NCBI GenBank assembly: GCA_902826715.1
Contig: CADEFX010000001.1
Coordinates: 1,972-65,971 of the forward strand
Direction of reading: 5' to 3'
Length of the DNA: 64,000 nt
Origin: an uncultured Hyphomicrobiales bacterium
GTDB taxonomy: Bacteria; Pseudomonadota; Alphaproteobacteria; Rhizobiales; Hyphomicrobiaceae
Part shown: in pieces, positions 6,501 to 63,905 of the stretch
Numbering within the stretch: the stretch's first letter is position 1
How the letters are laid out: the number at the start of each line of letters is the position of its first letter
Program-made: the position numbers and the translations under genes
The notes under the pieces: model-generated
Told to the model about the DNA's origin: nothing
What the model saw: only the letters and a program-made list of their open reading frames with translations
Database searches by the model: none

Positions 6501-7336
6501 GCGCGCATGTCGAGAACGCTGCGAGCGCGAGCATTGGCGTCACTCGTCGCCGGTTCCGGAACTCCCTGAACGCCGCCGACCGGCAGACTTGCAACGAACT
6601 CCCCGGCGATCCGGGCTCTCCCCGCCGGCTCGATCAATTGGCCGTCGAGGCTGTAGCTTTCACCCGATTGCAGGGCGCGGAGCACGGCTTTGAAACGCAC
6701 AATGCCGTCCGCTTCGGGCTTTGCCGTCGACAGCCTGAATTCCCGCGCGCCGCTCAGCATTGCCAGCAGCCTGTAGGAGCCGTCGAGCGTCGACGCAGAC
6801 AACTCGGCCGTCGGCGCGTCGAAGATGGCCTTCTTGCCGTTCGCATCCTGAACGACGACCGCCCCTCCGGTAATGTGCACGGTATTGAGCGCAATGCTGC
6901 CGGGCGACAATACCAACCCGGGGCGGTTCTCGCCGAACCCGGTCCAGTTGCCGCCGCCCTTGCCATCCGCGGCGAGCGTCAGCACCGGCCGGGTCAGCTC
7001 GACCCGAGTCGCCTCGAGCACGCCCTTGAACAGGGACGCCACCTTGAGCCAGACGATGAACCCGTCCGCCCTGAAGATCGATTCGCCGGTCCTCCCGGCC
7101 CCATCGGCGACGCGGATCTGCTCGAAGCGAATGGTGGGCGTCGGCAGCAGCTCCAGATTGACGTCGCCGCCCACGCGAACCTCACGGCCGAGTTGCCGCG
7201 AAGCTTCCTCCTCGAACACGCCGCGAAAATATGTCCAGTCAACGAATCGTGGGATCGCAAACAGCGCAGCCAGAACGCAGACCACGAAAGCGCCGCTGGA
7301 GAGAAGAAATCTATTCATGACTATCCCGTGCCGCAC
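3572..7336 (-). CDS. AsmA-family outer-membrane biogenesis protein (about 1250 aa)
   Basis: N-terminal transmembrane anchor plus an AsmA-type start (FVDWTYFRGVFEEEASRQLGREVRVGGDVNLELLPTP). Long beta-rich body and a charged coiled-coil C-terminal tail. An alternative ATG start lies at 7318. Confidence 0.8.
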   Translation of the reverse strand: MRHGIVMNRFLLSSGAFVVCVLAALFAIPRFVDWTYFRGVFEEEASRQLGREVRVGGDVNLELLPTPTIRFEQIRVADGAGRTGESIFRADGFIVWLKVASLFKGVLEATRVELTRPVLTLAADGKGGGNWTGFGENRPGLVLSPGSIALNTVHITGGAVVVQDANGKKAIFDAPTAELSASTLDGSYRLLAMLSGAREFRLSTAKPEADGIVRFKAVLRALQSGESYSLDGQLIEPAGRARIAGEFVASLPVGGVQGVPEPATSDANARARSVLDMRASLKADTHEVSLANLSLSFDSQGRPQLATGEAKFGWHDAQPASVHLESRWLDLDRIAGRGDGQTSPLALLEHVTAAIDNLMPAVARTQATFAVDQANLGGEAVSGLQLTLEKDKGVLKLGHLHASLPGGARIDATGALATGQADRSFSGDVTLRGASINRFLAWAAQGYGIPELMQDGSFAMRGHVSVGLGQLAGKGLMLQVAGNSLSGEVIWSWRDNRLLKLSLEGAELDVTPLLGENPRLGNLVAGLLQGTDAAKSSPTPAASGASARTTEVHVRTGRLVAGQETLRDVSLDVVADQDMLRLPLLKFSGDGDLTVELSGTVTGLAGSRPKGSIGGQMSSVRGFDQLAEILGVSQELRPSLRRAEVLSPIKLAGNLVLGAQGMPAFDLSLDGMAASSRLTVRASLDDARGAWREQRVGLSATLDGAEVSTVLAQVMPDILVGASARGAGTPAVATFRAVGVPARGLASLLTFDAAGIGGEFRGRIVIDDTASLAIEGETRLTADDLGRTAMLMGSPHRQGLEGVPLQATLGTSLSRGTLKLEARQLALAGMEAGGQASFELGGARRRGSGRLHVTEVSVPRLLATLADSRLKTEERKSGSPSDNALWPEAALDMSTLAEIDFDFRVNTPTLRLTRDMAVANAQIEAKAVDGKLNLVLRNAEALGGKAEARVEFNKAADGISAHGEMQLVNARLEQFGPAHRSAAIGDVSFGLDFSSVGLSPRGLVSAARGKGQIALGRSQLNRLSPGAINAAALAALVAPGETLNAELRRKLDEGLSGGVVPLGPRNIAMTIVDGAVRLEPVVLETPDGRATGSTTIDTESMVFDSEWRIEPKPAPARGGLGKAGALPGVSVVYVGPLASLGTVEPKLQTEALERELSVRKIERYVDELERLRHSDEERANVEAERTRALEAERQRIEEDRQNALRRSETDAQQRASAWGAATTLGETKQNAPPASKGRPPTAAEILRDIRDRSN

Positions 7337-7550
7337 GACGGAAACGCGGCAGTCTCACCTTAGTCCTCTATGGCTCTAGAGGGGGCGGTCTGTCGCGCAA
7401 GCCCACAGGGCGTTAGGTACCGTCGCGGATTTCTTGCGATCCACGATCACGGCGACCATCGATCAGTGTTCCTCTCTGTACCAGCGCTTGTATGCCACAA
7501 TCCACACCGGCGTAGCGCACGTTTTTTGCTGGGCCACGCCGATGCGACGC

Positions 7551-8339
7551 TTACACGGCCGGGCAGAGCCCGCCGTCGACGTTGATGGCTGTGCCGGTGA
7601 TGTATGAGCCCGCGTCCGACGCCAGGAAAACGGCGAGATTGGCGAACTCCTGCGCGGTTCCGATGCGGCCCAGCGGTATGGATTTGCCCATTTCATCGTA
7701 GTAAGCCTGCATGGTGCGCCCCTTGTTCTCCTTGGCGTGCCGGCGCACCCACTGGTCACTCTCGATGCGCCCGACCAGCATGGCGTTCACCAGAATATTG
7801 TGCGGGGCTCCTTCTCCCGCCAACACCTTGGTCAGCGCCATTCCGGCGGCACGCGTGACAGCGGTCGGGGCCCGTCCAGCCTCCGGAGCCTTGGCACCGA
7901 CATTGAGGATGTTAATAATACGGCCGGACCGGCGGTCCCGCATGGCCGGAAGCGCGTGGCGGATGAGGCGAATGGCGCCGAACAGCTTGAGGTCGAGATC
8001 GGCCTGCCAGATTTCGTCGGTGATGTCGTCGAACTTGCCCGTCTGCGACGATCCGGCATTGTTGACGAGCACGTCGACATAGCCGAGAGCCTTGGTCGCC
8101 GTCTCGAAAATGCGGGTGCAGTCCTCGGCTTTGCTGACATCCCCCGCGATGGTCACGATTTTCGTTTTGGCGATTTTCTCGATGTCCCGCTTGGCCAGTT
8201 CCAGCGGCTCCTGTCTGCGCGCCGTAATCGCCACATTGGCCCCAGCTTCTGCAAACGAGCGGGCAATCGCGAGCCCTATGCCCAGGCTGGCGCCGGTGAC
8301 CAGCGCATTGCGGCCCTTCATCGACAGTTCCATGGTCAT
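7551..8339 (-). CDS. SDR family oxidoreductase
   Basis: ALVTGASLGIGLAIA Rossmann motif and NNAG. Length is about 260 aa. The start may be the ATG at 8333 or 8321. Confidence 0.85.
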   Translation of the reverse strand: MTMELSMKGRNALVTGASLGIGLAIARSFAEAGANVAITARRQEPLELAKRDIEKIAKTKIVTIAGDVSKAEDCTRIFETATKALGYVDVLVNNAGSSQTGKFDDITDEIWQADLDLKLFGAIRLIRHALPAMRDRRSGRIINILNVGAKAPEAGRAPTAVTRAAGMALTKVLAGEGAPHNILVNAMLVGRIESDQWVRRHAKENKGRTMQAYYDEMGKSIPLGRIGTAQEFANLAVFLASDAGSYITGTAINVDGGLCPAV

Positions 8340-8492
8340 TTCCTTCGGTTGCAGGCTTGCTTGGCTCAGAGTATGCGGAGCCAGGCCATCTGCAAACAGC
8401 CTTGCGCGCCGCGCCGGGACGCCTATTTGCCTGTCTGTGGACGGGATGGCGGCCGGATTGCCGCCGCAGCCAGCATGCTATAGTCGCAGTTG

Positions 8493-10922
8493 ATGTCAGC
8501 GAATCGAAGCCAGATGGCCGGGCAGACCAGGCCGGACGCGGGCGAAGACCCGCCGTTCGACTTGCCGCCCGCGCCCGCAAACCAAAATCCCTCCGTCTCG
8601 GAGCGCGCCCTGCAATCGGCGGCGCCTCCATACATGGATGGGCTCAACCCCGAGCAGCGTCGGGCCGTTGAAACTGTTGATGGGCCGCTTCTCGTGCTCG
8701 CGGGCGCCGGGACCGGTAAAACCCGGGTCCTCATAACGCGGATCGCCCACATCCTGGCGACACGCAGGGCCTTCCCTTCGCAAGTGCTTGCCGTCACCTT
8801 CACCAACAAGGCCGCGCGCGAGATGAAGGAGCGCATCGGCGGCCTTATTGGCGGCTCGGTCGAAGGCATGCCCTGGCTCGGGACGTTTCACTCCATCGGC
8901 GTGAAGATCCTGCGCCGCCACGCCGAGCTTGTTGGGTTGAAGTCCGGCTTCACCATCCTTGACGTTGACGATCAGCTCCGGCTCCTCAAGCAGGTGATCG
9001 AGGCGGCAAACCTCGACAAGGACCGCTGGCCCGCCCGCCAGCTTGCGGCGCACATCGACCGTTGGAAGAACCGCGGGCTGACGCCCGACAAAGTGCCGGC
9101 CGGCGAGGCCTATGCTTTCGCCAACGGCGATGGCGCCAAACTTTATGCGGCCTACCAGCAGCGCCTCAAAGAGCTCAACGCTGCGGACTTCGGCGATCTG
9201 CTGCTGGAGTGCATCCGCCTGTTCACCACGCGGCCGGACATCCTGGCCGACTATCACAGGCGCTTCCGCTACATCCTGGTTGACGAATATCAGGATACCA
9301 ACGTCGCCCAGTATCTCTGGCTGCGCCTGCTGGCGCAAGGCTCGCCCAACATCTGCTGCGTGGGCGACGACGACCAGTCGATCTACGGCTGGCGCGGTGC
9401 GGAGGTCGACAACATCCTTCGCTTTGATAAGGATTTTCCCGGCGCCGCCGTCATCCGACTCGAACGCAACTATCGCTCCACCGGCCACATTCTTGCCTCC
9501 GCCGCCGGCCTGATCGCGCACAACAAGGGGCGCCTCGGCAAGACGCTGTTCACCGACGGCGCGCTCGGCGAGAAGGTCAGGGTCACAGGCTTCTGGGACG
9601 ACGAGGAAGAAGCCCGCACCATCGCTTCGGAGATCGAAGGCCTGCAAACCTCGCGCGCCCGCCTGAGTGACGTCGCTATTCTCGTGCGCGCATCTTTTCA
9701 GATGCGTGCCTTCGAGGATCGCTTCGTGACGCTGGGACTGCCGTATCGGGTTGTCGGCGGCCCGCGGTTCTACGAGCGCCAGGAGATCAAGGACGCTATC
9801 GCCTACCTGGAGGTCACCGTCAATCCGGCCAACGACCTCAAGTTCAAACCCATCGTAACCCTGCCCAAGCGTGGCCTCGGCGATACGACGATCCGCGAAA
9901 TTCACAACCTCGCCCGTGCTCGCGGCACGCCCATGTTCCAGGCCGCACGCGACATCATCGAGACCGAGGAATTGAAGCCCCGCGCCCGCAAATCCCTCGC
10001 CGACGTGGTCACCACCTTCGATCGCTGGCGCGCACGCCTCAGCGAGATGAAGCACACGGACCTTGCCGAGCTTATTCTCGACGAATCCGGCTACACGGCC
10101 ATGTGGCAGGCGGACAAGAACCCGCAATCTCAGTCACGGCTTGAGAACTTGAAAGAGCTTGTGCGCTTCATGCACGAGTTCGAGACCCTGCAGGGCTTTC
10201 TCGAGCACGTGTCTCTCGTTATGGACGTAGACACCGCCGATGAAGGCGCTCGCGTCACACTGATGACGTTGCATGCGGCCAAGGGCCTCGAGTTCGGCAC
10301 GGTCTTTCTGCCGGGCTGGGAGGAAGGCCTCTTTCCGCACCAGCGCTCGCTCGACGAGAACGGCCTGGCCGGATTGGAGGAGGAGCGCCGCCTTGCCTAT
10401 GTCGGGCTGACGCGCGCGGAACGCAAAGCCCGCGTGTCGTTCGCGCAGAACCGCCGCAACCGCGGCCTCTACCAGTCTGCCACGCCCTCGCGGTTCATCG
10501 ATGAGCTGCCGACCGGTGATGTGGATGTCGTGGAGGCAAAGGGCCCGTTCAGCGGAGCCTATGCAAATTTCGGCAATACCGGCGGCTTCGGCCGGTCCAA
10601 TCCATACGGAGCAAGCCGCTTCGACGATGTGGAGACGGCGCCGTTCCGCAGTTCCTATCAAACGCCGGGCTGGCAGCGTGCCCAGCAATGGCGACCGGAG
10701 CGCAGTACGGCGCAACGGCAGAAGAAAAAGCCGCTGACACTCGAAGGCGAGCTTGTCGCCTCCTCGACGGGGCACACGTCTGATTTCAGCGTCGGCGACC
10801 GGGTCCGGCATCAGAAATTCGGGTACGGCGAGGTGACCGGCGTCGACGGCAATAAGCTGACCATCGAGTTCGAGGACGCGGGCTCAAAGCGCGTCGTCGA
10901 CAGCTTCGTGGAAAAGGGCTGA
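8493..10922 (+). CDS. uvrD: UvrD/Rep/PcrA-type ATP-dependent DNA helicase
   Basis: Walker A AGAGTGKT, motif II VDEYQDTN, VGDDDQSIYGWRGA, LERNYRS, TLHAAKGLEF, and a C-terminal FGYGEV Tudor-like tail. Confidence 0.92.
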   Translation: MSANRSQMAGQTRPDAGEDPPFDLPPAPANQNPSVSERALQSAAPPYMDGLNPEQRRAVETVDGPLLVLAGAGTGKTRVLITRIAHILATRRAFPSQVLAVTFTNKAAREMKERIGGLIGGSVEGMPWLGTFHSIGVKILRRHAELVGLKSGFTILDVDDQLRLLKQVIEAANLDKDRWPARQLAAHIDRWKNRGLTPDKVPAGEAYAFANGDGAKLYAAYQQRLKELNAADFGDLLLECIRLFTTRPDILADYHRRFRYILVDEYQDTNVAQYLWLRLLAQGSPNICCVGDDDQSIYGWRGAEVDNILRFDKDFPGAAVIRLERNYRSTGHILASAAGLIAHNKGRLGKTLFTDGALGEKVRVTGFWDDEEEARTIASEIEGLQTSRARLSDVAILVRASFQMRAFEDRFVTLGLPYRVVGGPRFYERQEIKDAIAYLEVTVNPANDLKFKPIVTLPKRGLGDTTIREIHNLARARGTPMFQAARDIIETEELKPRARKSLADVVTTFDRWRARLSEMKHTDLAELILDESGYTAMWQADKNPQSQSRLENLKELVRFMHEFETLQGFLEHVSLVMDVDTADEGARVTLMTLHAAKGLEFGTVFLPGWEEGLFPHQRSLDENGLAGLEEERRLAYVGLTRAERKARVSFAQNRRNRGLYQSATPSRFIDELPTGDVDVVEAKGPFSGAYANFGNTGGFGRSNPYGASRFDDVETAPFRSSYQTPGWQRAQQWRPERSTAQRQKKKPLTLEGELVASSTGHTSDFSVGDRVRHQKFGYGEVTGVDGNKLTIEFEDAGSKRVVDSFVEKG

Positions 10923-11095
10923 CCGCGGCCCAACCCGGATCGAGACCTGCGAACGCCCCGGTTTCGAAACATGGGCACCTACCTGCAGCCCGGATGCAAC
11001 GTGCCCTGCCCAATTCCCGATCCAATGCCGTGCCACGCTCGACAACGCGGTCTGATAACCCTTAGAAGTTTTTGAGTTTGTAGCGGGAGAGAGCC

Positions 11096-12517
11096 ATGGC
11101 AGCGGTCGATACGGCGTTGCGCGGTCCCAGTATCGAAGCATCATCTACTGTGCGCCTCGCGGCAGAGGCTACGGCTGCCGACGTGATGGCTGAGATCTTC
11201 GATCGCCGCGACACGCGGGAAAAGTTCATCCCCGTCACGCGCGAGGCCATCATGGAGCGCCTGACGCGCCCCCATTCGTGGCCGGGGCAGGACGGAGCGG
11301 AAGCGCGCCGGTTTTTCCGCTATCTGGATTATTGGCGCCAGCAGACTTACGCCGCGCGCCTCTTGGAGCTCGAAAGCGACTACGAGCCGTTCAATCCCGA
11401 CAGCGATCTTGTGGTCAGCCGCACGTTCACGCCCGAGGAGCGCTTGCGCAAGCGCGAGCGGCTCGTGGCCAACATGACGAAACTGCTGGAGCAGGCCAAT
11501 TACACGCGCATCGATACGGACAGGATCGAGCTGATTCTCACCAGCGATAGCCACTATGGCCTCGACCTGCACGTCGATCTATCGGCTTTCGACGAACTGC
11601 AGATCTTCTACCGCGGTGCCAGCAAACGCACGGAAAACCGGCCTGACTTGCGCAAGCTCTATCTCAAGCAAGCGGAGATCGAGGTCCCGATTTTCCAGCG
11701 CCTTTGCGTGGTGTTCAAGCTCAAGCCTGATGACGTTCGCATTCGCGAGGTCATGGTGGAGCGCGGTTGCAACCGCAAGGAGGCCGAGAAAATCGTCAAG
11801 CGGCTGCGCCGCATGCTGCCGCCGCAGATCAAGTCGGACTACATCTACCTGAAGCTCTTCAAGAACATGCCGCGATCCGACATCGAGATGGTGTTTCCCA
11901 ACACACGCGTACGTTTCCGCATGTTCGACAAGATCAGGCTCGGCGTGACGGCCGGCAGCGGCCTCGGCATGGGCGTGTTCGGGACCGTGGGAAAGATCGT
12001 CGTCGCGTCGAACCCGATCGCGCTGGCGGGCGCCATGCTCGGCTTGTGCGGCATCGCCTTCCGCCAGGCCACGAGCTTTCTGAACCAGCGCAACCGGTAC
12101 ATGATGACGATGGCGCAAAACCTCTATTTCCACGCACTGGCAGACAATCGCGGCGTGACGACCTTGCTCGCCAATCGCGCGGCTGAAGAAGACATCAAGG
12201 AAGAAATGCTGCTCTACAACGCCATGGCCAAGGAGCGTGTTACACGAACCGACCTGGGCGATATCGACCGCGCCATCGAGCAGTATCTCCTCAATACCTT
12301 CAACGTGTCGGTGAATTTCGACCTCGAGGATGCGCTCGGCCGCCTGCTGGCAGACGGCGTCGTCACCGAAAAGGACGGCGTCTTTCAGACGCTAGCGCCG
12401 GCAGCAGCCGCCCAGCATATCGACGTCAAGTGGGACAAGTATCTGGACGAGTTGCCCGATCAGACCAGAAACGAAGGCATCGAATTCGATCAGGACGCCA
12501 GTGAGGCAGTCACCTGA
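11096..12517 (+). CDS. DUF3754 (TMEM143-like) membrane protein
   Basis: 473 aa with a soluble N-terminal region and a central hydrophobic pair (GVTAGSGLGMGVFGTVGKIVVASNPIALAGAMLGLCGIAF). The overall pattern is recognised as DUF3754. Family assignment is from memory only. Confidence 0.6.
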   Translation: MAAVDTALRGPSIEASSTVRLAAEATAADVMAEIFDRRDTREKFIPVTREAIMERLTRPHSWPGQDGAEARRFFRYLDYWRQQTYAARLLELESDYEPFNPDSDLVVSRTFTPEERLRKRERLVANMTKLLEQANYTRIDTDRIELILTSDSHYGLDLHVDLSAFDELQIFYRGASKRTENRPDLRKLYLKQAEIEVPIFQRLCVVFKLKPDDVRIREVMVERGCNRKEAEKIVKRLRRMLPPQIKSDYIYLKLFKNMPRSDIEMVFPNTRVRFRMFDKIRLGVTAGSGLGMGVFGTVGKIVVASNPIALAGAMLGLCGIAFRQATSFLNQRNRYMMTMAQNLYFHALADNRGVTTLLANRAAEEDIKEEMLLYNAMAKERVTRTDLGDIDRAIEQYLLNTFNVSVNFDLEDALGRLLADGVVTEKDGVFQTLAPAAAAQHIDVKWDKYLDELPDQTRNEGIEFDQDASEAVT

Positions 12518-54481: not shown

Positions 54482-55798
54482 ATGCGGATTGTCGTCATCG
54501 GATCAGGGTATGTGGGGTTGGTCTCCGGCGCCTGCTTTGCCGATTTCGGTCACGAAGTGATCTGTGTCGACAAGGACGCGGACAAGATCGCCAAACTGAA
54601 GGCGGGCGCCATTCCGATCTACGAGCCGGGGTTGGATGCGTTGGTGGCCTCCAATGCCGAGGCTGGCCGGCTGACGTTTGCCACCGAGCTGGCAGCTCAG
54701 GTGGCGGATGCCGACGTGGTGTTTCTGGCGGTCGGCACGCCGTCGCGGCGCGGCGATGGGCACGCCGATCTCACCTACGTGTATCAGGCGGCAAAGGAGG
54801 TGGGCGATTGTGCCAACGACGGGCTGGTGTTGGCCACGAAATCGACCGTACCAGTCGGCACGGGGGACGAGGTCGAGCGCATCGTGCGCAAGGCGCGGCC
54901 CGACCTTGCCTTCGACGTGGTCTCGAACCCCGAGTTTCTTCGGGAAGGCTCGGCCATCGAGGATTTCAAGCGCCCCGATCGCGTCGTGATCGGGGCCGAC
55001 AGTCAACGCGCGCGCGATCTCATGACGGAGGTTTACCGGCCGCTGTATCTCAATCACTCGCCCTTGATGTTCACCGACCGGCGAACGTCGGAGCTGATCA
55101 AATATGCGGCCAATGCGTTTCTGGCGGTGAAGATCACCTACATCAACGAGATGGCGGACTTGTGCGAGCAGGTCGGCGCCAACGTGCAGGAGGTGGCGCG
55201 CGGCATCGGCCTCGACAACCGCATCGGCTCCAAGTTTTTGCATGCGGGACCCGGATACGGTGGCTCGTGCTTCCCCAAGGACACGCTGGCGCTGATCAAG
55301 ACGGCGCAGGATTACAATGCGCCGACGCGCATCGTGGAGACCGTGGCCGCGGTCAACGAGCAGCGTAAGCGTGCTATGGGACGAAAGGTGATTGCCGCGT
55401 GCGGCGGCAGCGTGCGGGACAAAACAATTGCGATGCTGGGGCTGACGTTCAAGCCGAATACGGACGACATGCGTGAGGCGCCATCCATCGCCATCGCCAC
55501 GGCTCTGCAGGATGCGGGTGCACACGTGCGGGGATTCGACCCGGAAGGGATGGAGCAGGCGCGTCCCGTGCTGCCCGGCGTCGAACTGTGCGACAACGCC
55601 TACCAATGCATCACGGGCGCCGACGCGCTGGTGATCGTTACTGAGTGGAACGAGTTCCGCGCGCTTGACCTGAAGCGGGCGCACAAGCTGCTGAAATCGC
55701 CGGTCGTCGTCGACCTGCGCAACATCTACAGGCCCGACGAGATGGCGCGGCTCGGCTTCACCTACACCAGCGTGGGGCGGAGCAGTCGCAAGGACTGA
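54482..55798 (+). CDS. ugd: UDP-glucose 6-dehydrogenase
   Basis: MRIVVIGSGYVGLVSGACFA, NPEFLREGSAI, catalytic GPGYGGSCFPKD; 438 aa. Confidence 0.92.
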   Translation: MRIVVIGSGYVGLVSGACFADFGHEVICVDKDADKIAKLKAGAIPIYEPGLDALVASNAEAGRLTFATELAAQVADADVVFLAVGTPSRRGDGHADLTYVYQAAKEVGDCANDGLVLATKSTVPVGTGDEVERIVRKARPDLAFDVVSNPEFLREGSAIEDFKRPDRVVIGADSQRARDLMTEVYRPLYLNHSPLMFTDRRTSELIKYAANAFLAVKITYINEMADLCEQVGANVQEVARGIGLDNRIGSKFLHAGPGYGGSCFPKDTLALIKTAQDYNAPTRIVETVAAVNEQRKRAMGRKVIAACGGSVRDKTIAMLGLTFKPNTDDMREAPSIAIATALQDAGAHVRGFDPEGMEQARPVLPGVELCDNAYQCITGADALVIVTEWNEFRALDLKRAHKLLKSPVVVDLRNIYRPDEMARLGFTYTSVGRSSRKD

Positions 55799-60510: not shown

Positions 60511-60644
60511 AAGCAGCCCGGCGTATCTTGACGGCGCCCTGGAGTTTTGACGCCATAGCGCCTATATATTAGAATTGTTCCAAAGCAGAGTTTGGCCATG
60601 CCGCGCTTGTTGTGTGGGCCGCCAGTCTCGGGAGACAGAATCGC

Positions 60645-61205
60645 ATGTTCATCCAGACCGAGCCGACACCCAATCCTTCGACGCTGAAGTTCATCCCCGG
60701 CAAGGCGGTGCTAGCGGATGGGACCGTGGATTTTCGGGGGGCGGATGAGGCTGTGCACTCACCGCTGGCACAACGGCTGTTCGCCGTCGACGGCGTTACG
60801 GGCGTGTTCCTGGGGTCGGATTTCATCTCTGTCACCAAGGGCGAGATGGAATGGCAGCATCTGAAGCCGGCCGTCCTGGGTGCAATCATGGAACATTACA
60901 TGTCCGGCGCGCCCGTGGTCGAGGGCGCGGAGGCTTCGGGCGACGGGCCTGCCGAAGGCGAGTATGACCCGAAGGACGAAGAGACGGTCAACACCATCAA
61001 GGAGCTGCTTGAGACGCGCGTGCGTCCGGCGGTCGCCAATGACGGCGGCGACATTACGTTCCACGGCTTCAAGGATGGCATGGTCTATTTGCATATGCGG
61101 GGGGCCTGCGCCGGCTGCCCGAGTTCGACGGCGACGCTGCGGGGCGGCATCGAGCGGCTGCTGCAACACTTTTGCCCCGACGTGCACGAGGTGCGCCCCG
61201 TCTAG
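60645..61205 (+). CDS. NifU/Nfu-type Fe-S cluster scaffold protein (Nfu_N + NifU C-terminal domains)
   Basis: MFIQTEPTPNPSTLKFIPG start, C-terminal GGDITFHGF...MRGACAGCPSS CxxC motif. Internal ATG at 60645. Confidence 0.88.
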   Translation: MFIQTEPTPNPSTLKFIPGKAVLADGTVDFRGADEAVHSPLAQRLFAVDGVTGVFLGSDFISVTKGEMEWQHLKPAVLGAIMEHYMSGAPVVEGAEASGDGPAEGEYDPKDEETVNTIKELLETRVRPAVANDGGDITFHGFKDGMVYLHMRGACAGCPSSTATLRGGIERLLQHFCPDVHEVRPV

Positions 61206-61288
61206 CACGATCATGTATCGGGCTTAACTTGACCCGGATCGGGATCGGCCTAGGCTTTTCGCTACGTTTCACGTGAAGCGAGGAGCCG

Positions 61289-61885
61289 ATGATGTCTGCG
61301 CCCGTGTCTGATGCTGTCCTTGACCAGATCTATCGATCGGCGCGGACAAACAACAAATGGCAGGCGAAGGATGTGCCTGACGATCTCCTGCGCGATATAG
61401 TCGATCTGGCCAAGATGGGGCCGACGAGTGCGAACTGTCAGCCGGCGCGGTTCCTGTTCGTGAAGTCGCCGCAGGCCAAGCAGCGCCTGAAGCCGTTCCT
61501 GTCGTCGACCAATGCTGAAAAGACCATGCAGGCGCCGGTGTGCGCGATCATCGGCTACGATCTGCGATTTTACGAGCACCTGCCGCGACTGTTTCCGCAC
61601 AACCCGACGGCACGCACTTGGTTCGAGGGCAACGAAGCCCACATCATGACGACGGCGCTCAGGAACAGCTCGCTGCAGGGCGCCTACCTGATTCTCGCTG
61701 CGCGGGCGCTGGGCTTGGATACCGGTCCGATGTCGGGCTTCGACAATGCGGGTGTCGACAAGGAATTTTTTGCCGGAACATCGGTAAAGTCGAATTTCAT
61801 ATGTAGCCTGGGCTATGGCGATCCGGCCGGCGTCCATCCGCGCGGACCGCGTTTCGCCTTCGACGAGATGGCAAAGATCCTTTGA
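61289..61885 (+). CDS. nitroreductase-family protein, malonic semialdehyde reductase RutE-like
   Basis: LDQIYRSARTNNKW, MGPTSANCQPARFLFV, GLDTGPMSGFD motifs; 198 aa; AGGAG Shine-Dalgarno. Confidence 0.82.
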   Translation: MMSAPVSDAVLDQIYRSARTNNKWQAKDVPDDLLRDIVDLAKMGPTSANCQPARFLFVKSPQAKQRLKPFLSSTNAEKTMQAPVCAIIGYDLRFYEHLPRLFPHNPTARTWFEGNEAHIMTTALRNSSLQGAYLILAARALGLDTGPMSGFDNAGVDKEFFAGTSVKSNFICSLGYGDPAGVHPRGPRFAFDEMAKIL

Positions 61886-61898
61886 TGCAGCGAGGCCG

Positions 61899-62591
61899 AT
61901 GAGCCTTCTCGCCTTCGATACGTGTTTCGGTGCTGTGTCCGTTGCTGTCGGCAGGCAACAGGCGGACGGCGGCTGGCTTACGCATGAAGCCTACGAAGAG
62001 ATGGCGGTCGGCCAGGCCGAGCGGCTGATGCCGATGATCGACGAGGTGATGCGGGCCGCGGGCGTGGATTTCACGCAGGTATCGAGGATCGCGGTCACGC
62101 GGGGGCCGGGCTCGTTCACGGGCGTGCGCGTCGGCGTGGCGTCGGCGCGGGCGCTTGCGCTGGCGACAGGTGCGGAGCTGGTGGCAACGACGAGCCTTGC
62201 CGTCGTGGCCGCAGCCGCCGATGGAGAGTTGGAGGGACGTGGCAATACTCTGTTGGCCGTCGTCATGGATGCACGGCGCGGTGGCCTCTACATGCAAGTT
62301 TTTGGGAACCATGCGCGCGATGAGCTGACGGCCGCGTCCGAAGTGACGCCTGAGGCTGGTGCGGCGCTCCTTGCGGGCCGGCACGCGATCGCGGTGGGTT
62401 CGGGCGCCCAAGCGCTCGCCCGGGCGGCCGGCGAAGGCCTAGTCGAGGTGCGAATGCCCGGCATGCAGCCACGCGCCACCTCGCTTCTTGCGATAGCGTC
62501 CGAACTTCCTCCGGTCGAAACGGTGACACCGCTGTACATTCGCCAGCCGGATGCCAAGGCGCAGGCACACGGGAGCTTGTTGAAAGGCTGA
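61899..62591 (+). CDS. tsaB: tRNA threonylcarbamoyladenosine biosynthesis protein TsaB
   Basis: LLAFDTCFGAVSVAV, VTRGPGSFTGVRVGVASARALAL. Internal ATG at 61899. Confidence 0.85.
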   Translation: MSLLAFDTCFGAVSVAVGRQQADGGWLTHEAYEEMAVGQAERLMPMIDEVMRAAGVDFTQVSRIAVTRGPGSFTGVRVGVASARALALATGAELVATTSLAVVAAAADGELEGRGNTLLAVVMDARRGGLYMQVFGNHARDELTAASEVTPEAGAALLAGRHAIAVGSGAQALARAAGEGLVEVRMPGMQPRATSLLAIASELPPVETVTPLYIRQPDAKAQAHGSLLKG

Positions 62592-62598
62592 TTGCGAC

Positions 62599-63081
62599 GT
62601 GCCCGAGAAGCGACATCTGCTCCATCTGCAGCCGGCGACGCCGGAATTTGCCGGCGATATATCGGCCCTGCACAGCAGCCTGTTCGAGAAGGCATGGGAC
62701 GCGGACGGCGTGCGGCGTCTCCTTGAGCATCCGGCATCCGTTGCGCTGGTTGCGACGGCGGAGCGGCCGTGGCGTGTGATCGGATTCATTCTGGCGCAGC
62801 TGACGGCCGATGAGGCCGAGATTCTGTCGCTGGGCGTCGGGGTCATGTCGCAGCGCGCGGGCATCGGCAAGATGCTCGTGCAAGGGCTGATCGAGATGGC
62901 GCAGCGCAAAGGCGTGAAGCGGATCTTTCTCGACGTCGCGGCCAGCAACGCTGCGGCCATCGGTCTTTATCGCGCGATGGACTTCGCTGAGATGGGCCGG
63001 CGCAAGGAGTACTACAGCCACAACGGCGGACGCCGCGAGGATGCACTGCTGATGGTGCGCGACCTTGGCGAGAGTTCATAA
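62599..63081 (+). CDS. rimI: ribosomal-protein-alanine N-acetyltransferase (GNAT)
   Basis: GNAT acetyl-CoA motif VMSQRAGIGKMLV, FLDVAASNAAAIGLYRAMDF. It is adjacent to tsaB, as is usual. GTG start. Confidence 0.83.
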   Translation: MPEKRHLLHLQPATPEFAGDISALHSSLFEKAWDADGVRRLLEHPASVALVATAERPWRVIGFILAQLTADEAEILSLGVGVMSQRAGIGKMLVQGLIEMAQRKGVKRIFLDVAASNAAAIGLYRAMDFAEMGRRKEYYSHNGGRREDALLMVRDLGESS

Positions 63082-63257
63082 GCGGTCGAATTTCGCCACT
63101 AGGGCTGGATCGCTTGAGAAAACCCCGATCTTGAGCGTTGCGCCTGGATTGTGTTCAAGAAGTTATCGCTTCCATAACGGCAACGCATTTCCGCCTTCTC
63201 CTTGCGCAGCGCAGGGTTACGCTGGCCGACAAACATCAGAAGGCACAAGGAGGACGT

Positions 63258-63905
63258 ATGCCCCTCAAGGACAAACTCGACGAAACGCGTACCGGGTCGG
63301 CCAAACGCCGGACCGCCGAGCAGCGCGCCATAATGCAGCGCGCAACCGAAGATCTTCGCGCCTCCGGCATTCTCGACACCGTGCTGAAGGCCGGTCAGGT
63401 CATGCCCGCCTTTACCGGCACCAGCCATGACGGACGCACGATCGGCTCCGCCGGCCTGCTCCAGCAAGGGCCGCTGGTGCTGTCATTCTTCCGCGGACAC
63501 TGGTGACCGTATTGCCGGCATGAGCTGGATGCTCTGCAAGCAATCTACGCTGACATCAAAACTGCCGCTGGCGAAATCGTCGTGTTATCGAGCGAGACCG
63601 GCGATGTCTCCGGCCAGATGGCCGCCAAGCAGGGCCTGACGTTCCCGATCGTGCAGGACGCGGGGCTTGCCATCGCGCGATCGTTTGGGCTTGCCTTCAC
63701 GCTGCCCGACGACCTGAAAGCCCTGTACCAGAGTTTCAGCATCGACCTACCGAAGAACACCGGCCACCCCGCCTGGGAGCTGCCGATGCCTGCGCGCTAT
63801 GTGATCGACAGAAACGGGATGGTCCGCTCCGCTGAGGTTGACCCGGACTACACGGTTCGCCTCGAGCCCGCGGACACGCTGGCGATCGTGCGGAGCTTGG
63901 GTTGA
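63258..63905 (+). CDS. peroxiredoxin-like (PRX_like2, thioredoxin-fold) protein with an in-frame TGA at 63504-63506; candidate selenoprotein (UPYC redox motif)
   Basis: ORFs 63138-63506 and 63582-63905 are in the same frame, and the sequence between them is also open. The joined product reads ...GPLVLSFFRGHW[TGA]PYCRHELDAL...LPMPARYVIDRNG...DPDYT, colinear with the PRX_like2 family, whose Cys forms read WCPYC. ATG at 63258 with an AAGGAGGA Shine-Dalgarno. Confidence 0.6.
63511..63544 (+). promoter_or_regulatory. candidate bacterial SECIS hairpin
   Basis: Numbering the U of UGA as 1: pairs 8-41, 9-40, 10-39, 11-38, 12-37; a 2x2 internal loop; pairs 15-34, 16-33, 17-32; bulged U18; pairs 19-31, 20-30, 21-29, 22-28; apical loop UGGAU (23-27). 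This compares with E. coli fdhF, which has bulged U17 and loop G23 U24. Confidence 0.5.

Follow-up and report, generated by a model that had tools for sequence, protein, structure and literature searches.

An in-frame UGA interrupts a gene near the end of the window, the 64,000-nucleotide stretch of contig DNA from an uncultured Hyphomicrobiales bacterium that was analysed here, and a hairpin can form in the mRNA directly downstream of this codon. The locus therefore raises the question of whether the UGA is a true stop or is read as Sec under the direction of the hairpin, which the first-pass annotation, made from the single sequence, had interpreted as a SECIS-like element. On the sequence comparisons reported below, the hairpin is very probably a bacterial SECIS (bSECIS) within a Prx-like UxxC selenoprotein gene, in which the UGA at 63504 would be read as Sec. 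The SECIS interpretation is supported in that the hairpin is conserved together with the TGA, absent from Cys forms of the gene and more stable than synonymous shuffles of the same segment.

The predicted protein carries the active-site motif W-U-P-Y-C, with the TGA occupying the position of the first Cys of the redox CxxC (W-C-P-Y-C). Exchange of Sec and Cys at a redox-active Cys is the classic signature of a selenoprotein. An AGGAGG Shine-Dalgarno sequence (63248-63253) lies four nt upstream of the ATG, and the translated product matches the Pfam families PF00578 (AhpC/TSA; 5.5e-22) and PF08534 (Redoxin; 5.1e-17), whereas no NCBIfam model reaches its cut-off for the 215-residue protein; its closest solved relative is the thiol-disulfide oxidoreductase ResA. 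In all likelihood, as judged from motif and domain content, the protein is a peroxiredoxin-like (AhpC/TSA fold) thiol:disulfide oxidoreductase with its nucleophilic Cys replaced by Sec. Gene callers divide it into an 82-aa N-terminal product (63258-63506) and a 107-aa C-terminal product (63582-63905); none of the in-frame starts lies just 3' of the TGA, the first one being the GTG at 63582. The window's own gene is present in nine independent assemblies, with the 82-aa and 107-aa call each time, and across public gene calls (L107-L113 included) an 82-aa N-terminal ORF is accompanied by a C-terminal ORF of 107-134 aa.

The gene is preceded on the same strand (60612-63081) by genes for a NifU/Nfu-type protein, a nitroreductase, a TsaB-like protein (PF00814) and a GNAT acetyltransferase (RimI-like), and past the window end (L107) it is followed by a Bac_luciferase-family oxidoreductase on the minus strand and then a cupin. 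Neighbours vary among the ortholog loci, those of the L111 and L112 orthologs being unrelated to the window's, and no conserved synteny with sel or other selenoprotein genes was found among these loci.

Positions in the RNA are numbered with the U of UGA as 1, so that position 8 corresponds to 63511 and position 41 to 63544. The mRNA segment at 63504-63557 begins UGA CCG UAU UGC CGG CAU GAG CUG GAU GCU CUG CAA GCA AUC, and all the parts listed in the first-pass annotation, namely a 12-bp hairpin from nt 8 with its stems, a 2x2 internal loop, a bulged U18 and the loop UGGAU, are present in it. RNAfold returns this structure as both the MFE and the centroid fold, at -17.1 kcal/mol for the 47-nt segment, with -14.9 kcal/mol for the hairpin alone (nt 8-41) and -8.1 kcal/mol for the 20-nt core (nt 15-34). 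The internal loop (CG/AA) separates the lower stem from the GCA/UGC helix (15-17/32-34), the core starts at nt 15 (63518), 11 nt past the UGA, and the apical stem GAGC/GCUC is formed by nt 19-22 and 28-31. Coordinates are collected in Table 1.

Table 1. Predicted features of the locus, given in window coordinates; nt positions are counted from the U of UGA.
Feature	Position	Strand	Basis or remark
Predicted selenoprotein gene, 215 codons, Sec at codon 83	63258..63905	+	Readthrough translation of one TGA; PF00578
In-frame UGA, putative Sec codon	63504..63506	+	Opposite the first CPYC Cys when aligned with Cys homologs
Full 12-bp interrupted hairpin, putative SECIS	63511..63544	+	nt 8-41; RNAfold MFE and centroid
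Lower stem, 5' arm AUUGC	63511..63515	+	nt 8-12; overlaps the Tyr and Cys codons of UxxC
Lower stem, 3' arm GCAAU	63540..63544	+	nt 37-41; RNAfold and ortholog pair counts
Conserved core GCA[U]GAGC-UGGAU-GCUCUGC	63518..63537	+	nt 15-34; putative SelB-binding minimal SECIS
Bulged U18, putative counterpart of fdhF U17	63521	+	Bulged register in 55/69 orthologs
Apical loop UGGAU	63526..63530	+	nt 23-27; U23 and G24 invariant, then G25

The published bSECIS consensus comprises a loop of 3-9 nt, an upper stem of 4-16 bp, a UGA-to-loop distance of 16-37 nt, an MFE <= -7.5 and a G at one or both of the first two loop positions, with G or U as the usual next base (PMC13188914). The window element agrees with it in every respect, having a loop of 5 nt, a stem of 4 + 3 bp, the loop start U-G-G, a distance of 19 nt and an MFE of -17.1. 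Its stability was compared with several kinds of shuffled sequence. Only 2 of 200 dinucleotide shuffles of the 47-nt segment were as stable as the observed sequence (z = -2.72), and the same held for 0.14% of synonymous-codon shuffles with uniform codons (z = -3.2) and for 1.0% when codons were weighted by window usage (z = -2.4); in the comparison with synonymous shuffles, which had been named as a check, the observed fold is thus the more stable. The accompanying argument that such a hairpin would hardly form by chance at this spacing is weak for one GC-rich sequence. Downstream of 344 of the 1,624 TGA triplets on both strands of the window (21%), a fold passes the loose bSECIS consensus, 95 (5.9%) pass with an MFE <= -17.1, and 18% of the 47-mers taken 3' of random TGAs in the window reach the stability of the target. 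This false-positive rate agrees with the published observation that bSECISearch hits scale with GC content (PMC12013277). Because 21% of window TGAs pass the consensus, the hairpin of a single sequence is weak evidence; it is lifted above chance because it is conserved in orthologs, and the decisive evidence for a SECIS is comparative, not fold stability.

In a protein search, the closest relatives (63-78% identity) are C-terminal fragments of 123-134 aa and full-length relatives are only 40-50% identical, a pattern to be expected when gene callers stop at a Sec codon. When genome and metagenome DNA was scanned, a TGA was recovered at the same codon, within the same architecture, in 83 related loci down to approximately 45% protein identity, consisting of L001-L003, from Hyphomicrobiaceae and Rhizobiaceae MAGs, and 80 metagenome loci; the clade occurs both in soil metagenomes and in MAGs of Hyphomicrobiales. 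The full-length Cys homologs found number more than 100, and a scan of viral contigs for Cys-form DNA gave no matches. A neighbour-joining (NJ) tree was built from 79 Sec forms and 121 Cys forms; in this tree, which is rough and without bootstrap support, the Sec forms are nearly monophyletic, 74 of the 79 falling in one pure clade, and the smallest clade holding all Sec forms includes only two Cys forms (L114 and L115). Since the orthologs share a phylogeny, counts among them do not represent independent events.

Conservation of the RNA was assessed on an ungapped alignment of 69 distinct 54-nt segments from Sec forms. Columns 19-24 (GAGCUG), 28-30 (GCU) and 32 are invariant, and the apical stem is present in all 69 sequences, either as GAGC/GCUC or, with a G.U pair, as GAGC/GCUU. 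The loop is UGGAU in 34 sequences, UGGAC in 15, UGGAG in 11, UGGAA in five, UGUAC in two, and UGUCA and UGGCA in one each; positions 24-25 read G-[G/U] throughout (G-G in 66/69, G-U in 3/69), and the UGA-to-loop spacing is fixed at 19 nt (positions 4-22) in 69/69. Sub-apical pairs occur in every ortholog, in one of two registers. In 55 of the 69, window included, nt 15-17 pair with nt 32-34 and nt 18 is bulged, whereas in the other 14 nt 16-18 pair with nt 32-34 in a continuous helix with no bulge, and Asn-Ala or a similar pair of residues replaces Arg-His. The GCR trinucleotide of this bulge-less RH-to-NA subclade lies one position further 3' and still pairs with UGC. With the 4 bp of the apical stem and 2-5 further pairs (three in the window), the total reaches at least 6 bp in 69/69. 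All 69 elements agree with the bSECIS consensus in loop, stem, G-[G/U] and spacing, and 61-62 of them in MFE (<= -7.5), the remainder lying between -5.2 and -7.3; the optional N1-N2 closing pair (23.27) is formed in 18/69 and is absent from the window (U.U).

Covariation among Sec-containing orthologs, another check that had been suggested, is found in part. Pair 9.40 covaries (CG 35, UA 17, UG 8), with a Fisher p of 7e-5 for column 9 against column 40, uncorrected for phylogeny, and pair 16.33 is CG in 52 sequences, UA in two and UG in one (variant states in L072 and L067); the covariation score exceeds those of all 500 shuffles. The invariant apical stem gives no covariation because it never varies, and its support comes instead from synonymous-site constraint. 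Only about half the orthologs can form pairs 10-12/37-39, and the lower stem is therefore clade-specific and auxiliary. Of the hairpin as originally drawn, the upper 7 bp and the loop are thus conserved clade-wide, whereas AUUGC/GCAAU is confined to the window's sub-clade. Run on the 69 sequences, RNAalifold retains nothing but the invariant apical stem of 4 bp, since the register of the sub-apical and lower stems changes between subclades; pairing was therefore assessed from pair counts and from folds of the individual sequences.

Synonymous-site constraint was measured on a codon alignment of 79 Sec genes as the fraction of identical codons among sequence pairs sharing the amino acid. This fraction is 0.89 at codons +5 to +10, the highest value of any 6-codon window in the gene, vs 0.52 elsewhere, and it rises to 0.99 for His-CAT and 1.00 for Glu-GAG, Leu-CTG and Ala-GCT. 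GCT represents only 8% of the Ala codons in the window ORFs and is used in every Sec form, and its U pairs with the A of GAG. These values show RNA-level selection on the synonymous sites of the putative SECIS region.

The Cys homologs provide the counterpart to these observations. The motif GAGC-N5-GCUY is present in 62/62 Sec forms vs 0/19 Cys homologs from diverse bacteria, many of which encode E-L-x-A-L with a scattered choice of Ala codon (GCC 5, GCG 5, GCA 3, GCT 2). Closer still are the Cys forms L114 and L115, nested in the Sec clade, where ELYAL is written GAG CTC TAT GCC CTG with no hairpin; the Sec forms L082 and L089 write the same residues as GAG CTG TAC GCT YTG. The codon at the Sec position is TGA in Sec forms and TGC or TGT in Cys forms. 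The first-pass annotation had held that a hairpin preserved in Cys-containing orthologs would be a codon-composition artefact, and no such preservation is seen in the 19 homologs or in L114 and L115. A covariance model (R1), built from the 69 elements with L111-L113 outside the training set, scores Sec forms at >= 53.7 bits (L111-L113 included) and Cys forms at <= 24.5 bits, whereas generic folding energy separates the two groups poorly (MFE p = 0.047, z-scores p = 0.085). Searched with R1, the window holds no second element; the best other match, at 54672-54718 (+), reaches 13.8 bits (E ~1.3) and was treated as noise. Nor did a search for further TGA-split coding regions in the window yield a second selenoprotein candidate.

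Some further observations concern genes related to, or adjoining, the Sec and Cys forms. Cys-form loci (L091, L094, L095, L097, L105 and others) often adjoin a divergent LysR regulator, a carboxymuconolactone decarboxylase (AhpD-like), a glutathione S-transferase or an SDR oxidoreductase, which suggests an oxidative-stress/detoxification module in their neighbourhood that the Sec forms do not visibly share. In L073, a second tandem selenoprotein gene appears to lie at 900-1480 (TGA at 1100-1102), just 3' of the Sec gene of the main family (TGA at 462); it would encode a redoxin with a signal peptide (MAKWIVAMALVLAAISDGATAQ...) and the motif FFRSAAW-U-PYC, its frame is intact through the TGA, and it has a hairpin of its own, GCAGCU/AGCUGC with the loop GGUCG, in which G24-G25 recurs. 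In L031, L044 and L054, this second family is represented by Cys versions without the hairpin, located 1.7-1.9 kb from the Sec gene.

The machinery for Sec insertion was also sought around these genes. ARAGORN detected no tRNA-Sec in the window or in 44 loci, and tblastn with E. coli SelA, SelB and SelD queries found no selA, selB or selD in the 64-kb window; on all locus flanks, the same search returned a single match, a degraded SelA fragment in L017. The same queries recover selA (1e-134) and selB (1e-121) on pSymA of Sinorhizobium meliloti, so the negative search is meaningful for the 64 kb examined. PLSDB lists no features for this region of the plasmid, in which the fdoG UGA with SECIS_3, selA and selB are present (L116:1962-2020, 7101-8444 and 9252-11129). 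The L017 fragment (1552-1900; YDLTTGTRGERD...EIGGSFR...VGTTNRTH...KVRTSNF) is interrupted by stops, lies ~300-450 nt 3' of the Sec gene, shows 58% identity to E. coli SelA over 59 aa and is absent from sibling loci; it may be what remains of an earlier link of the Sec machinery to this gene, or it may be an artefact of assembly. Carriage of fdoGHI-selABCD is common among Rhizobiales/Hyphomicrobiales (PMC8124441), and by analogy we infer that the source genome is Sec-competent.

Against this evidence, other accounts of the hairpin can be weighed. It might be a by-product of codon composition and conserved residues, the TGA being a true stop and the locus a pseudogene or two small genes, and both the 21% of window TGAs followed by bSECIS-like folds and the two ORFs annotated by gene callers fit such a view. 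Yet the TGA falls inside the catalytic CxxC of a single thioredoxin-fold domain, and 83 loci share it along with an intact downstream frame. In Cys forms that encode the same residues, codon choice is scattered and the hairpin is missing, the synonymous sites of the gene are frozen only in the SECIS region, and the TGA is not followed at once by a start, the first in-frame GTG being that at 63582; we regard this account as exceedingly improbable. Synonymous constraint alone does not identify a function, and the conservation could in principle be due to a role in mRNA stability, targeting by an sRNA or programmed pausing, unrelated to UGA decoding. Such a role is very improbable in view of the strict co-occurrence of the element with the TGA (Sec 62/62 vs Cys 0/19), its absence from Cys forms nested in the Sec clade and its register to the UGA, fixed in 69/69.

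There is also the possibility that the hairpin stimulates SelB-independent readthrough of the UGA, by near-cognate Trp or Cys, and not Sec insertion. Downstream structures can in principle promote stop-codon readthrough, and Sec machinery was not found in the 64 kb; however, the conserved features are those described in the literature as SelB determinants, namely a G-[G/U] loop, a bulged U six nt upstream and a start 11 nt after the UGA (PMC8659212, PMC13188914). The site is moreover the redox-active Cys, and the order is known for selABCD (PMC8124441), which leaves this explanation very unlikely. Genome-wide reassignment of UGA to Trp or Gly was considered and set aside, given that the alignment of Cys with TGA falls precisely on the redox Cys. 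A database protein, P0002, shows Gly in place of Sec and looks like a gene call made with UGA as Gly (code 25); its Gly was read in this way and not as a sign of reassignment.

Under the preferred reading, in which the hairpin is a bSECIS and the UGA is decoded as Sec, the lower stem would melt as the ribosome nears the UGA, and the 20-nt core (nt 15-34) would remain in its folded state at the entrance for the mRNA, 11 nt beyond the UGA. The winged-helix domains at the C terminus of SelB, which bears GTP as well as Sec-tRNA(Sec), would then bind to the loop G and to the region of the bulge, and SelB would bring its Sec-tRNA to the A site, competing with release factor 2. SelB binding and the actual insertion of Sec are steps that we infer from the conserved element. 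The known mechanism of Sec insertion is unchanged by these findings.

At the level of annotation, the locus would be described as one 215-residue selenoprotein in place of the 82-aa and 107-aa products, and the same correction would apply to at least 80 metagenomic and MAG orthologs. More tentatively, and with somewhat less than an even chance in our estimation, these genes may form a large uncatalogued Prx-like UxxC clade in soil Hyphomicrobiales and relatives, with a SECIS subtype of its own (GCA[U]GAGC-UGGNN-GCUCUGC) that lies outside Rfam, and always split by gene callers. If this is true, Sec use in the largely aerobic soil Alphaproteobacteria extends beyond formate dehydrogenase, and the split between bulged (55) and bulge-less (14) elements implies that the bulged U, which E. 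coli cannot do without, is not a strict requirement for SelB in these bacteria. The two kinds of ortholog constitute a natural variant series for SelB recognition, and the alignment with its covariance model could seed an RNA family that is missing from Rfam.

Among known elements, that of E. coli fdhF was the one to which the hairpin had been likened. According to Liu et al. (1998), as cited in PMC8659212, the minimal fdhF element spans nt 15-31, 11 nt from the UGA, its bulged U17 and loop G23-U24 are SelB contacts, and its lower stem is worth only ~25% of readthrough. Both elements lie in coding sequence directly 3' of the UGA, with an upper stem-loop from nt 15, a single bulged U on the 5' strand 6 nt before the loop G, and a lower stem that is dispensable or variable. 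They differ in that U17 and G23 of fdhF correspond to U18 and G24 here (+1), and in the size of the core, which is 20 nt here and 17 nt in fdhF, the apical stem here having 4 bp and the loop 5 nt (UGGAN). Moreover, the loop dinucleotide is G-U in fdhF and G-G in the window and in 66/69 elements in total, 14/69 orthologs here have no bulge, and the host gene is a redoxin here and a formate dehydrogenase there. The proposed likeness thus stands for the start at nt 15 and for the bulged U and the loop G, offset by one; the loop dinucleotide has G-G in place of G-U, which the general bSECIS model accepts.

Within the same bacterial order, fdoG on S. meliloti pSymA (UGA at L116:1965) served as a control. 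Its element (Rfam SECIS_3, RF01989; L116:1962-2020) also begins at nt 15 and has U17 bulged, an apical stem of 5 bp and the loop GUU with G23-U24; the SelB that reads it is presumably of the same type as for the window element. The two nevertheless have no detectable sequence or profile similarity: SECIS_3 scores 81.6 bits on pSymA fdoG, as a positive control, whereas no Rfam SECIS family matches the window element at the gathering threshold or at E <= 10. The bacterial SECIS models of Rfam are specific to gene families, SECIS_3 being limited to the FDH family.

The closest precedent for the gene itself is the Prx-like UxxC family (pfam00578; 'Prx-like protein' in PMC1088965, 'Prx-like 1' in PMC2398784), a recognised family of bacterial selenoproteins since the Sargasso Sea and GOS analyses (PMC1088965, PMC2398784), whose UxxC/UxxU members (PF00578) were considered 'predicted with high confidence' in a 2026 review (PMC13188914). 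Members described so far, with Geobacter WP_010940744.1 among the published references, have their sources in marine metagenomes, in Deltaproteobacteria (Geobacter, Syntrophus, Desulfotalea) and in Asgard archaea (PMC1088965, PMC2398784, PMC13188914). In Alphaproteobacteria, FdhA was the sole selenoprotein reported in 2006 (PMC1794560), and formate dehydrogenase was still described as the primary use of Sec in 2021 (PMC8124441); the window gene would thus bring a thiol oxidoreductase into the Sec repertoire of the order, for which formate dehydrogenase has been described as the main or only selenoprotein (PMC1794560, PMC8124441). With the described Prx-like selenoproteins it shares the PF00578 domain, Sec as the first residue of a thioredoxin-like UxxC, numerous Cys homologs and a bSECIS that follows the UGA directly. 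It differs from them in its occurrence in soil metagenomes and Hyphomicrobiales MAGs, in the N-terminal extension of ~45 residues carried by the window clade, and in that the closest database relatives of this clade are Cys forms named 'peroxiredoxin-like family protein'. Both the family, Prx-like UxxC, and the mechanism are known, and the gene is therefore best placed as a new member of that family, possibly representing a new clade.
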